The notes beneath the pieces were generated by a model that searched no databases, was not told where the DNA came from, and worked only from the letters and a program-made list of their open reading frames with translations. A DNA stretch of 52,065 bases from contig JAJYKZ010000004.1 of assembly GCA_021788105.1 (NCBI GenBank), positions 1-52,065 on the forward strand. The letters are read 5' to 3'. Shown one piece after another: positions 3,898 to 6,901 of the stretch (positions are counted from its first letter, which is position 1; the number at the start of each line of letters is the position of its first letter). The DNA is from a bacterium. GTDB lineage: Bacteria > Patescibacteriota > Minisyncoccia > Moranbacterales > UBA2206. A program made the translations under genes and the position numbers.

Positions 3898-4593
3898 ATG
3901 GCTACTAAAGTCACAGGCGATCAGTATTATGATCTTGATGGTCAATTGGCCGAGATCAAAAGGCAGTTGAGGCAACAGGGCGGTTATCCTTACGATCCCG
4001 AGAAGCTGAAAAAATGTCTCCAGGATGCAATCGAGGGTAGGTTCGAGAGGGTTGTATTTATGGACAGGCCTAAAACCATCCCGACCAAACCCTTTGACTC
4101 CGCCGTTTTCTTGGGCGAAGGTTGGGCGACCTGGAAAGGTTCGCCCGATGGCGACGGACTTTCAGGAGAGGAAGATGTTGATCCTCGCGGAATCGCTTTG
4201 GCTGAGATTAATATCTCAAAGCTCGTATTTGAGACAAATCTCAAAAAAGGAGAAAAGTCTATCAAGGGCGAAGAAAAACTTCGCCGTCAAAAAGAGATGA
4301 CAGGTCTCATCCGTCACGGAGGCAATACTTTCCTTGGCCTGTGGGAAGACTACCAGGCCAATAAGGAAAACAGCATAATCGAATGGCTGTATCGGACCTA
4401 CAAAATTACTTTCCTTGATTTCATGGGCCAGGTACTTCGCGGCCCGTACGGTGACCGCAGCGTGCTTTGCCTCTACCGGCGCAGCGGTGGCGAGGGGCGC
4501 TGGGACTTCCACTGGCTCGACAACGACTGGTCTGCCGGCAATTCCTCTGCTTGCGAGCAAGTCAGCGCTCAGGACTCGGAAACTCAGGCCTAG
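3898..4593 (+). CDS. DGR target (variable) protein, 231 aa, with C-terminal VR
   Basis: C-terminus [42 protein letters not shown] is the diversified copy of the TR-encoded [42 protein letters not shown]; no signal peptide or TM seen; CLec-like fold is inferred from DGR precedent. Confidence 0.92.
4435..4560 (+). repeat. DGR variable repeat (VR)
   Basis: Ungapped 126-bp alignment to 4900-5025 (offset 465): 21 mismatches, 20 opposite TR adenines. Confidence 0.96.
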
Positions 4594-4627
4594 CCCTCAG
4601 AAAATTAGTCCTAAAGCATCAAAAAAT

Positions 4628-4658
4628 GAGCCTCGTGTTGAATTCTCGCACGAGGCTC
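4628..4658 (+). other. Inverted repeat downstream of VR (candidate DGR homing hairpin/cruciform, or terminator)
   Basis: Perfect 10-bp stem GAGCCTCGTG (4628-4637) / CACGAGGCTC (4649-4658), 11-nt loop, 35 nt after the target stop. Confidence 0.75.
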
Positions 4659-4899
4659 TTAAATTTGGTAAAATAAAAACGGTAGTAGGGAAGTATGCAA
4701 GCGATTAAGGTTTCTTGCTTCCGAATCCAGTATCCATGCGTCGGGATTGTCCGCGATCACGGTTTCGGGCAGAGTGGCGCATGCAGAAACTTCAAAAAAA
4801 TGAAGATACTTGGTGCAATATGCTAGGTGATTTTAGATCACGAATTCGATTCAGCCCAAAGAGTATTCGATGGGCAGTGGCAAGGAAGGCGTTTCGCAC

Positions 4900-5025
4900 A
4901 TTCGCAACCCGAACGGTAACCGCAACGTGCTTTACCTCAACCGGAACAGCGATGGCAAGTGGAACTGGAACTACAACTGGCTCGACAACGACTGGAATGC
5001 CGGCAATTCCTCTGCTTGCGAGAAA
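4900..5025 (+). repeat. DGR template repeat (TR)
   Basis: Adenine-bearing copy of VR; 10 AAC and 2 AAT codons in the VR frame; 37 adenines in total. Confidence 0.96.
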
Positions 5026-5045
5026 TTCTCTTCATTTCTCTTCCT

Positions 5046-5457
5046 CTATTTTTTATCGGGAGAGTTTTTCTTTGCAAGACTGCCGCTCCAGCCGCCTAAA
5101 TCTTTGCCAATGTCATTCAGCTTGTTGGAAAGCTGGATATATTTATAATCATCCAACGATTTTGTTTCCCAAAGAATATTAAGGAAAATTTTTAAAACAT
5201 CCGATTTTCTAATCGCCAATCTGACATATGGTTTTTTTTCTTCCGGTTTCAAAAAAGCGGCAATAGCGATTGATTCGATAATTTCCGTAAAGTATTTATC
5301 AACTTTCTGCCCAAGCGTATACCTGTGAGTGGTCGGTAAAATCCGGTAATATTCATACCAAACCAAATAAAGCGATTTTACTTTTTCAAATACCGCCGGA
5401 AGCCTGGGGGGGGGGCGTTAAAAGTTGCGAATCTTTATGAAAATTCAATTGACTCAT
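5046..5457 (-). CDS. avd: Avd-like accessory variability determinant (four-helix bundle), frameshifted at a C10 tract as sequenced
   Basis: HRYTLGQKVD, KPYVRLAIRKSDVLKIFL and IGKDLGGW are typical of Avd/four-helix-bundle proteins. The frame stays open upstream of TTG 5366 (RLPAVFEKVKSLYL) to the homopolymer. ATG 5457 joins this frame if one C is removed (136 aa); otherwise only a TTG-started 106-aa form exists. Confidence 0.82.
5406..5415. repeat. G10 homopolymer (C10 on the avd strand)
   Basis: AGCCT-GGGGGGGGGG-CGTTA; the only long G/C run I noticed in the window. Confidence 0.9.
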
Positions 5458-6429
5458 ACTTTTGAAGAAATTATCAGTTTAGAAAATTTATTGAAAGCTT
5501 GGAAAGAATTCGTTCGCGGCAAACGGAACAAAAAAGATGTCCAGATTTTTCAAATGCGTCTGATGGACAATATTTTGGCTTTGCACCCTGACTTAGTCAA
5601 TCATACCTACAAACACGGCGGCTATCAAGCATTCAAAATCAATGATCCGAAACCAAGAGATATTCACAAAGCTATGGTTCGTGATCGACTTCTCCATCAT
5701 GCCATTTATCGAATTTTATATCCGTTTTTTGAAAAAACTTTCATTGCCGATTCTTTTTCCTGCCGTCTGGACAAAGGCACGCATAAATCCATCAACAGAT
5801 TCTGTAAATTTTCCCGCATCGTCGGCAAAAACAATACGCGAACCTGCTGGATTTTGAAATGCGATATCAGAAAATTCTTCGCCAATATCGATCATGCCGT
5901 CCTGCTTGAATTTTTGCGGGAATACATTCCCGACAAAGATATACTGTGGCTTCTTGGAGAGGTCGTAAACAGTTTCAATACCAAAGGAAAAACTGATGCC
6001 GGCCTGCCATTGGGTAACCTCACTTCGCAATTGTTCGTCAACGTCTATATGAACAAATTCGACCAGTTTGTGAAACACAAGTTAAAAGCTAGATACTATA
6101 TCCGCTACGCGGACGATTTCGTAATATTTTCAGAAAGCAAAGATTATTTGGCAAATTGTATCCCCAAAATATCCGAATTTCTGCAAAAAGAATTGAAGCT
6201 TAAATTGCATCCAGACAAAGTTTTCATAAAAACTTTGGCATCAGGCGTAGATTTTCTTGGCTGGATAAGTTTTCCTGATCATCGGGTACTGCGGACAACG
6301 ACGAAAAGGCGGATGCTGAAAAGGATAAAAAATAATCCAGCGAGGGAAACTCTGGATTCGTATCTAGGAATGTTGGGTCATGGGAATACGGAGAAATTGA
6401 GAATACATATAGAAAATAAAAATTTCTAA
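5437..6429 (+). CDS. DGR-type reverse transcriptase
   Basis: RDRLLHHAI, LKCDIRKFFANIDH, GLPLGNLTSQLF (DGR-type SQ), YIRYADDFV, GVDFLGW; about 330 aa with no maturase or endonuclease extension; ATG 5437 (alternative TTG 5425). Confidence 0.96.
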   Translation: MKIQLTHTFEEIISLENLLKAWKEFVRGKRNKKDVQIFQMRLMDNILALHPDLVNHTYKHGGYQAFKINDPKPRDIHKAMVRDRLLHHAIYRILYPFFEKTFIADSFSCRLDKGTHKSINRFCKFSRIVGKNNTRTCWILKCDIRKFFANIDHAVLLEFLREYIPDKDILWLLGEVVNSFNTKGKTDAGLPLGNLTSQLFVNVYMNKFDQFVKHKLKARYYIRYADDFVIFSESKDYLANCIPKISEFLQKELKLKLHPDKVFIKTLASGVDFLGWISFPDHRVLRTTTKRRMLKRIKNNPARETLDSYLGMLGHGNTEKLRIHIENKNF

Positions 6430-6502: not shown

Positions 6503-6901
6503 TTATTTTTTCTTCCGGCACCGGTCGCACTGGCAGCCTTTCGGCCCGATGAATTCGTCAAAATATTCTTTGCCGTAATCATAAGTCAACTCTTCGCCGG
6601 AACTGATGTTTTTGATGGTGTAAATCATTATTTTCCGTCCGTCAATTTCCGGCTCGCAGTTCGGCCGGCAGGAATGATTGATGTAGCGGGCGATATTTTT
6701 CCGGCCGGTTCCGTCGACGGTCCAACGGGAATTGACGGTAAAAAGATAGCGGCCGCCCCGCTCGTTGGCTTCCTTGTTAGAGATAAGTTCGCCGGAGTAT
6801 TCGGCAACAAACTCTTTTTTGCGAAAATTCTTTGCGGCGAAAAGTCCCAAACCGGTGCGGGATTTTTTAATCTGGAAAAATTTTGCTTGCGTGTCTTTCA
6901 T
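6503..6901 (-). CDS. SET-domain protein-lysine methyltransferase with post-SET cysteines
   Basis: GLGLFA, EYSGELI, ARYINHSCRPNC, GEELTYDYG, CQCDRC. Confidence 0.93.
   Translation of the reverse strand: MKDTQAKFFQIKKSRTGLGLFAAKNFRKKEFVAEYSGELISNKEANERGGRYLFTVNSRWTVDGTGRKNIARYINHSCRPNCEPEIDGRKIMIYTIKNISSGEELTYDYGKEYFDEFIGPKGCQCDRCRKKK

Follow-up and report, generated by a model that had tools for sequence, protein, structure and literature searches.

A run of ten G/C pairs between the start codon and the body of avd, a gene of a diversity-generating retroelement (DGR), is probably a slipped-strand contingency switch on DGR mutagenesis, and in the copy described here that switch would be OFF. 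The element lies in a patescibacterial genome (Moranbacterales, UBA2206; GenBank assembly GCA_021788105.1), on contig JAJYKZ010000004.1; the stretch analysed, positions 1 to 52,065 of the forward strand (52,065 nucleotides), is referred to as the window. Region 3898-6429 of the window is a complete DGR, in the order target gene with variable repeat (VR), template repeat (TR), avd on the opposite strand and reverse transcriptase (RT) gene (Table 1). TR and VR align without gaps over 128 nucleotides, with 19 of their 21 mismatches at TR adenines, and the RT gene stands beside this pair, as expected of a DGR.

On the minus strand, translation from the ATG at 5457-5455 reads MSQLNFHKDSQLLTPPPQASGGI and terminates at 5388-5386, after 23 codons. 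The body of Avd is encoded in another frame, which after the TAA at 5420-5418 reads RPPPRLPAVFEKVKSLYLVWYEY... and ends at the stop at 5046; from stop to stop this frame begins RPPPRLPAVFEK.... Relative to the body frame, the leader lacks one base. To enter the body it would have to be shifted by +1 or to contain C9 or C12 as its tract; across the shifted tract, the junction peptide predicted in the body frame is TPPPRLPAVFEK. The initial annotation, made from the sequence of the window, had concluded that G10 puts the avd start out of frame, that C9 or C12 would give a 136-residue Avd including the first helix, and that no alternative start restores this helix. All three points hold: a natural homolog (P0002, 136 residues, 91% identical) has exactly that form and reads MNQLNLHKNNSLNIPPPRLPAVFEK... 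in frame, and translation of the Avd frame from the TAA at 5420-5418 meets no ATG, GTG or TTG upstream of the TTG at 5366. The open reading frame (ORF) started at this TTG (P0009, 106 residues), which is the form reported by the gene caller, is without 12 of the 19 residues of helix 1. The ten C residues thus have the makings of a simple sequence repeat (SSR) contingency locus, a repeat of unstable length placed between ATG leader and body such that a change of one unit alters the frame. The distance of 21 nucleotides between the end of the tract and the RT ATG at 5437 was also as annotated; the VR is some 0.9 kb away from the tract. However, the accompanying suggestion that the tract tunes RT expression finds no support in the window copy, where a TAA in the RT frame (5419-5421) sits between tract and RT ATG and closes that frame, so that only Avd depends on the tract.

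Against the NCBIfam profile NF033474, the Avd body scores 50.7 bits (E 1.8e-13, profile positions 2-102 on residues 8-110; curated cut-off 80 bits), and against the Pfam profile bAvd (PF22296) it scores 31.7 bits (E 2.3e-7; cut-off 40). An AlphaFold2 model based on an alignment of 37 relatives predicts a four-helix bundle (helices at residues 6-24, 29-54, 58-84 and 90-106) with a mean predicted local distance difference test score of 86.4. The predicted fold and the genomic context fit Avd despite the sub-threshold profile scores. With its RT, its predicted Avd four-helix bundle and its adenine-specific TR/VR pair, the window DGR resembles those of BPP-1 (avd-TR-brt) and of type B3; it differs from them in an Avd match that lies under the curated cut-offs and in a target protein without a recognised domain (no family in Pfam and NCBIfam scans of its 231 residues). 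Architecture B3, TR-(avd)-RT with avd on the reverse strand, was catalogued by Wu et al. 2018 (PMC5758913), and in the available part of that survey no mention was found of a repeat in avd or of a head-to-head overlap of avd and RT.

A protein search returned 219 Avd homologs, with PF22296 in precomputed annotation. Full-length homologs share the same leader, followed by PPP and then helix 1, and many database Avd entries begin just past the prolines. For comparison at the DNA level, the best 80 of 151 loci from species genomes were combined with 41 metagenome loci and the window; of these 122 loci, 8 without the N-terminal part of the body were dropped, and removal of 12 exact duplicates from the remaining 114 left 102 unique loci. 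An avd was scored as in frame when its ATG-started leader was in frame with the Avd body. Comparison of tract length and avd frame across these relatives, as proposed in the initial annotation, revealed C8-C14 (mode 10) at the homologous spot in 83 of the 102 loci and all three frames among them: 22 are in frame, 39 need +1, 20 need -1 and 2 are classed as other. Shorter runs of C5-7 occur in seven loci (5 in frame, 1 needing +1, none needing -1, 1 other), ten have no repeat (8 in frame, 1 needing +1, 1 needing -1), and two have a dinucleotide repeat (1 in frame, 1 needing -1). The in-frame share is 22/83 for C8-C14 versus 13/17 for C5-7 or no repeat (Fisher p 1.7e-4), although kinship among the loci means that they are not independent and that p-values are overstated. 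A stricter definition of the leader, under which 60 of 81 loci were used and 21 dropped, left the picture unchanged (for tracts of at least 8: 10 in frame, 29 needing +1, 14 needing -1).

The leader is continuous with the body in in-frame or tract-less homologs (P0002, L006, L022, L023 and L046), and in the tract-less L023 it joins helix 1 directly, MNQLNFHNQLIPLLQK; direct junctions of this kind mark the leader ATG as the real start. The prolines encoded by the tract are all CCC, a codon that makes up 16% of proline codons in the window genome, which points to selection on the nucleotide run and not on the peptide. The tract lies 2-9 nucleotides before Avd helix 1, and 19 to about 120 nucleotides from the RT ATG. 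Taken as a family, these loci display the length polymorphism between conserved flanks, and the coexistence of ON and OFF alleles, that characterize SSR contingency loci; the single conserved direction of shift that would characterize programmed frameshifting is not seen (39 need +1, 20 need -1, 22 need none). Among 76 Avd loci from viral contigs, taken as an outgroup, the repeat was found in only the two nearest relatives (57-61% identity), which carry C8 and (GA)19.

Differences in tract length also separate sequences that are otherwise the same. Two pairs of assemblies, L047 (C8) versus L049 (C9) and L002 (C10) versus L082 (C11), are identical over 300 nucleotides of flanking sequence and differ in the length of the tract, and a third pair with 93% flank identity sets C10 against an in-frame C9. 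Sequencing data were available as Logan contigs and unitigs from four DNA runs of one study; no RNA run was listed as containing the locus, and no single piece covered the window from end to end. In run X1, which contains most of the window, the tract is covered by three unitigs from related strains, with G10 in one (depth 32.5) and G11 in the others (depths 30.6 and 41.9), and in run X2 a related contig of 8.7 kb carries G10; these contigs show variation between strains in one sample, not within a clone. To judge from these comparisons, the tract appears to be the fastest-changing site of the locus.

It is very improbable that the true tract is C9 or C12 in an ordinary gene and that G10 reflects an error of sequencing or assembly. 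Such an error is easy to imagine in that homopolymers are error-prone and a third DGR of the same genome is broken between contigs exactly at its tract, but it would have to recur in 61 of 83 independent assemblies at one spot, with the rest of the gene intact, and in both of two DGRs of the window genome, each with C10. The Logan unitigs, at depths of 30-42, support G10 and G11 in different strain backgrounds, and dinucleotide repeats at the same site cannot be homopolymer errors. Thirty-three tract-bearing loci lie on contigs with NODE_ or k141-style names, which suggest short-read assemblers; by manual count, 9 of them are in frame, 13 need +1, 10 need -1 and 1 fits both. The scatter is thus present on short-read-style contigs, and long-read homopolymer error does not account for it.

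The out-of-frame avd bodies are, by their codon-level divergence, under purifying selection and not decaying. Past the anchor, 101 or more codons are open in each of the 57 out-of-frame loci whose body is complete; 4 further ones run off the end of the locus. The median ratio of nonsynonymous to synonymous substitution rates (dN/dS) is 0.13 among OFF-OFF pairs (124 pairs) and 0.105 among ON-ON pairs (17 pairs); for the window and its nearest relative, L001, both C10 and OFF, it is 0.065 (dN 0.033, dS 0.505). The first 12 codons of helix 1, which lie between the tract and the position of the window TTG, are of particular interest in loci where nothing except passage through the tract would reach them: in 27 OFF loci without an alternative start, the ratio of nonsynonymous to synonymous differences per site (pN/pS) in this stretch is 0.375, similar to the 0.39 of ON loci, with 0.61 and 1.9 in two off-frame controls, for which these bases were read in the two remaining frames. 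This suggests that in OFF loci the stretch is translated in the Avd frame often enough for selection to act. The window copy, which has no body-frame start before residue 18, belongs to an element that can hardly be dead. A frameshifted avd in decay would account for a consensus that is out of frame with no start restoring helix 1, but the low dN/dS at a dS of 0.5 between two out-of-frame copies, the 57 open bodies out of 57, the intact RT ORF and the concentration of VR/TR mismatches at TR adenines (19/21) make this scarcely credible.

The same arrangement recurs elsewhere in the window genome (921 kb, 42% G+C, 94% complete). Its G/C runs have a bimodal length distribution, with 31 of length 6, 3 of length 7 and 7 of length 8 or more, which puts the tract of the window well beyond chance, and three of these seven sit at avd/RT junctions. 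A second complete DGR (G000:C16; L122:763-3717) has the same layout and G10 at positions 2693-2702 of contig C16. Its Avd, P0122, is divergent (Avd model E 1.1e-6, under the cut-off), its avd ATG leader, MTNYSTFKSPPP, is +1 out of frame, and the ATG upstream of the tract on the RT strand (MDNLTRPLGGG) is also +1 out of the RT frame. The third DGR is split between the end of contig C24 and the end of contig C6 of this genome, exactly at a G11 tract. A fourth, DGR-like avd/RT pair (G000:C28:1473-2815; L124) is free of repeats and has an avd that reads in frame from the ATG; there the avd and RT starts diverge 2 nucleotides apart (CAT AT ATG).

When P0122 was used as query in 401 Patescibacteria species genomes, only distant Avds were found outside its own genome. 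The RT of the C16 element was used as query instead and matched 88 of the 401 genomes at E 1e-40 or better. From these, 109 RT N-termini outside the window genome were taken (29 + 80 loci; the G334 match was left out), of which 108 were counted, L220 having no RT N-terminal match. The 150 nucleotides upstream of the conserved RT N-terminus served as repeat zone, with a threshold of at least 6 units for dinucleotide repeats. A G/C run of at least 8 (mode 10, maximum 16) is present in 44 of the 108 loci and a dinucleotide repeat of 6-38 units in 20, and the remaining 44 have no repeat. In the whole of the window genome (921 kb) such repeats number 8, a base rate of 0.0013 per 150 nucleotides.

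The dinucleotide repeats, (GT)n, (CT)n or (GA)n, take the place of poly-C (L148, L159, L165, L170, L172, L176, L179, L182-L186, L202, L205, L207, L210, L214, L216, L232 and L238). In 15 repeat loci that were inspected, 14 of them with dinucleotides, the repeat stands directly before Avd helix 1 wherever the opposite-strand frame is readable, and it translates as (HT)n, (RE)n or (LS)n. The frames of the dinucleotide loci are again mixed (about 6 in frame, 8 and 5 in the other two states, 1 without a leader). The occurrence of different repeats at one place argues for selection on instability at that place, and against a need for proline, a G-rich RNA element or ribosomal slippage specific to CCC.

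These data also bear on the possibility that the tract is a cis-acting nucleic-acid element of the RT side, such as a promoter spacer, a 5' leader or part of the DGR RNA, and that its passage through avd is incidental. Proximity speaks for such a role, given that in most loci the tract lies 9-46 nucleotides upstream of the conserved RT N-terminus, but its position is fixed with respect to Avd helix 1 and variable with respect to the RT ATG. A TTAAAAG-like motif follows the tract in many loci, and three other G9/G10 tracts of the window genome lie between TTGNCA and TATTAT hexamers, in a promoter-spacer-like position; no sigma-70-like promoter was found on the + strand around the tract of the window itself, although the scan of promoters and terminators over 4600-5800 is uninformative, with 2 promoter-like sites versus 2.8 expected and none on the + strand at the tract. 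Since ATG-started leaders always read through the tract, as PPP or, in the sister family, GGG, and unrelated dinucleotide repeats substitute at the same site, a role confined to the RT side is improbable.

In many loci the tract is shared by two genes. In the sister DGR family, which includes the C16 element, the RT reading frame crosses the tract, and an N-terminal extension that includes GGG, such as MHQRRIK...GGG, is present in 77 of 120 database entries for its RT protein. Among the 44 homopolymer loci, 28 have an RT frame that is open across the tract with no ATG after it. Of these 28, 15 have a single leader per strand, and in all 15 RT and Avd are in the same phase; 11 more are ambiguous, though with a shared frame, and 2 are without a leader. 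Another 15 of the 44 resemble the window in having the RT ATG after the tract. Roughly two thirds of the elements with a homopolymer thus have a single tract that lies in both reading frames, with RT and Avd in phase. The geometry accounts for this coupling, since each start codon lies opposite a His codon of its partner gene, as its complement, and one slip therefore shifts both genes alike; in the Avd family, an ATG lies opposite RT codon 7 in 63 of 76 loci with a nearby RT match (window counted). Read manually, the Avd states of the 44 homopolymer loci are 5 in frame, 21 needing +1, 13 needing -1 and 5 ambiguous. On balance, we lean slightly towards the view that across Patescibacteria the repeat at the avd/RT junction is a selected master switch that makes DGR hypermutation phase-variable, often gating RT and Avd together.

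Two sets of surveyed loci deserve separate mention. In L206 (G067:C6:263528-264028), a G16, a run of N and a run of ~50 C stand upstream of one RT, which may be an artefact of assembly or scaffolding. In L146, L153, L161 and L168, where the 150-nucleotide zone is without a repeat, a dinucleotide repeat (8-10 units) is present at a distance of ~0.4-0.6 kb from the start of RT.

As to how the switch could work in the window, translation of Avd would start at the ATG at 5457 and proceed through the short leader and the poly-C, read as prolines, into helix 1. Slipped-strand mispairing during replication would add or remove one C, and each such change would move the Avd body in or out of frame with its start, C10 being OFF and C9 ON. 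Neither MutS nor MutL was found in the window genome (94% complete), so that slips in the tract would stay unrepaired, and a G10 run in the absence of mismatch repair is expected to change length often. Avd is needed for cDNA synthesis in the DGR of a Bordetella phage. In a minority of cells the tract could thereby switch on the mutagenic retrohoming of the target gene and later switch it off again, in a manner that would be heritable yet reversible and would let a population fix a good variant. In most homopolymer-bearing elements, a slip would gate RT along with Avd. That consensus sequences are so seldom in frame suggests that the ON state carries a cost and does not last, as would suit a mutator of use only in bursts. 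The initial annotation had proposed an ON/OFF switch with this copy OFF or, as an alternative, that Avd is rationed by frameshifting; the proposal of a switch has gained support from the fixed place and variable length of the tract, the three frames, the intact bodies, the pairs with identical flanks and the dinucleotide substitutes.

A further observation concerns mismatch repair beyond this genome. MutS scores above cut-off in 37 of 201 Patescibacteria genomes. The 88 genomes (of 401) with a DGR RT match include only a single one of these, G076, whose RT locus (L155) is free of repeats. Within Patescibacteria, there seems to be a mutual avoidance of DGRs and mismatch repair.

Several points weigh against a contingency switch. 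The Avd profile matches, to NF033474 and PF22296 alike, are under their curated cut-offs, and to our knowledge the requirement for Avd is established solely in the Bordetella phage system. The origin of the length changes within a clone, their reversibility and their effect on Avd and on DGR activity are steps we infer from sequence comparison. A canonical start, mostly TTG, lies near the start of helix 1 in 34 of the 61 out-of-frame loci, for which use of a downstream start is possible. Kinship among the loci reduces the weight of the counts. Finally, the state that requires +1 is the commonest in both surveys (39/83 and 21/39), which would also fit decoding by slippage, and in the second survey, which is an unbiased sample, in-frame alleles are fewer than the expected one third (5/39, p 0.006).

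These last figures are in line with an explanation by recoding, in which the out-of-frame arrangement is normal, the length of the DNA tract is of minor importance and a low, set level of Avd (and of RT in the sister family) is produced by slippage, be it +1 or -1 slippage of ribosomes on CCC or GGG or slippage of RNA polymerase on a run that equals the RNA-DNA hybrid in length. Ribosomes tend to slip by +1 on CCC-C and to stall at polyproline, and there is less documentation of slippage for G/C than for A/T runs. Recoding would account for the predominance of the +1-requiring state and the depletion of in-frame alleles, but both directions are common, -1 being needed in 20/83 and 13/39. It would also account for the fact that nearly all tracts are at least 8 long; yet 20 of the 108 RT loci carry (GT)n, (CT)n or (GA)n in mixed frames, which slippage of tRNA-Pro cannot decode. 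Both complete tract-bearing DGRs of the window genome have C10 and require +1, and the helix-1 codons are selected in out-of-frame loci without another start, as recoding would predict; however, the 0-frame stop of the window lies 6 codons past the tract and not at the shift site, EF-P is encoded in the genome, and the pairs with identical flanks differ in the DNA itself. Recoding as the main function of the tract is therefore unlikely, though it deserves to be taken seriously, and switch and recoding are not mutually exclusive.

Programmed +1 frameshifting of the prfB type and transcriptional slippage (Thermus dnaX, Shigella mxiE, IS elements) are known, and they share with the window a slippery homopolymer between start codon and functional frame. 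The avd tract differs from them in that the direction is not conserved and that the window has no shift-site stop or hungry codon (stimulators were not systematically surveyed). Unlike the runs of known transcriptional slippage, which are A/T, the run here is G/C, and relatives carry dinucleotide repeats in the same place.

A closer parallel is provided by the poly-G/C contingency loci of Neisseria, Haemophilus, Campylobacter and Helicobacter, as described in the accessible parts of two accounts (PMC4965091, PMC5084427): a G/C run of at least 8 lies near the 5' end of an ORF, its length varies among close relatives, in-frame and out-of-frame alleles coexist, and the gene is under selection. 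For the window DGR, this likeness is one of sequence-level features. By contrast with those loci, which gate surface or restriction-modification genes in host-adapted pathogens, the gene gated here would be a component of targeted hypermutation in Patescibacteria that live freely or as episymbionts, and in many DGRs one tract lies in two head-to-head genes. The switch would also resemble phasevarions, that is, phase-variable DNA methyltransferases, in that, as far as the consulted sections on these systems go, a random repeat switch operates one level up and alters other phenotypes; here, however, the effect would be on the mutation rate of one target gene, not on methylation-dependent expression. 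A literature search, with Paul et al. 2017 and supplements outside its scope, found nothing linking avd or DGRs with homopolymers, simple repeats or phase variation, nor any link between Patescibacteria or the Candidate Phyla Radiation and contingency loci or phase variation. Such a repeat is likewise not mentioned in the available text of Wu et al. 2018 (PMC5758913) or Roux et al. 2021 (PMC8144416).

It is not settled how DGR mutagenesis is kept in check by the cell. According to a 2024 preprint on Bacteroides DGRs (10.1101/2024.11.15.621889), the signals and mechanisms behind the control of mutagenic retrohoming are still to be discovered, and mutagenesis is expected to come in bursts with quiet intervals between them. 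For the large Patescibacteria DGR clade, a repeat that switches Avd, and in many cases RT as well, would be a concrete answer that can be read from sequence. Evolvability would then be under second-order control, with a mutable repeat gating a mutator, and the lower apparent activity of this group in metagenomes would be accounted for; according to the accessible text of Roux et al. 2021, the activity of the Patescibacteria DGR clade is lower than average. If the switch operates as proposed, metagenomes could reveal whether it is ON or OFF and how this relates to VR diversity, and contingency loci may occur more generally in Patescibacteria. There is a practical consequence for annotation as well: gene callers truncate or miss such avd and RT genes, and many database entries start after the tract, so that surveys may score these DGRs as avd-less or defective.

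Table 1. Features of the DGR in the window (positions are those of the window)
Feature	Position	Strand	Basis and remarks
DGR target gene, 231 aa	3898..4593	+	ORF; contains VR
Variable repeat (VR)	4436..4563	+	3' end of target gene; aligned to TR
Template repeat (TR), 36 adenines	4901..5028	+	VR/TR comparison
avd body, predicted four-helix bundle	5046..5417	-	open from TAA 5420-5418 to stop at 5046; first canonical start TTG 5366
avd leader ORF, ATG 5457, 23 codons	5386..5457	-	stop TGA 5388-5386; +1 out of frame with body
G10/C10 homopolymer, candidate slipped-strand switch	5406..5415	G on +, C on minus	Pro codons in avd
RT/avd start overlap, head-to-head, 21 nt	5437..5457	both	each ATG is the complement of the other gene's CAT (His) codon
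Reverse transcriptase (RT), 330 aa	5437..6429	+	Pfam RVT_1 E 4.8e-25; ATG 5437, alternative TTG 5425

The three G9/G10 tracts that lie between TTGNCA and TATTAT hexamers elsewhere in the window genome have spacers of 18-19 nucleotides and stand upstream of small membrane or secreted low-complexity proteins. They are located at G000:C40:44347-44356 (L125:548-557), G000:C10:27048-27056 (L126:549-557) and G000:C6:35911-35919 (L127), and are followed, respectively, by proteins of 109 plus 268 residues, by one of 73 residues and by a Cys/Ser-rich protein of 348 residues. On sequence grounds they look like phase-variable promoters. In the window, directly past the RT gene, a minus-strand ORF at 6503-6901 (132 residues) looks like a SET-domain protein, judging from NHSCRPNC and ELTYDY motifs read by eye.

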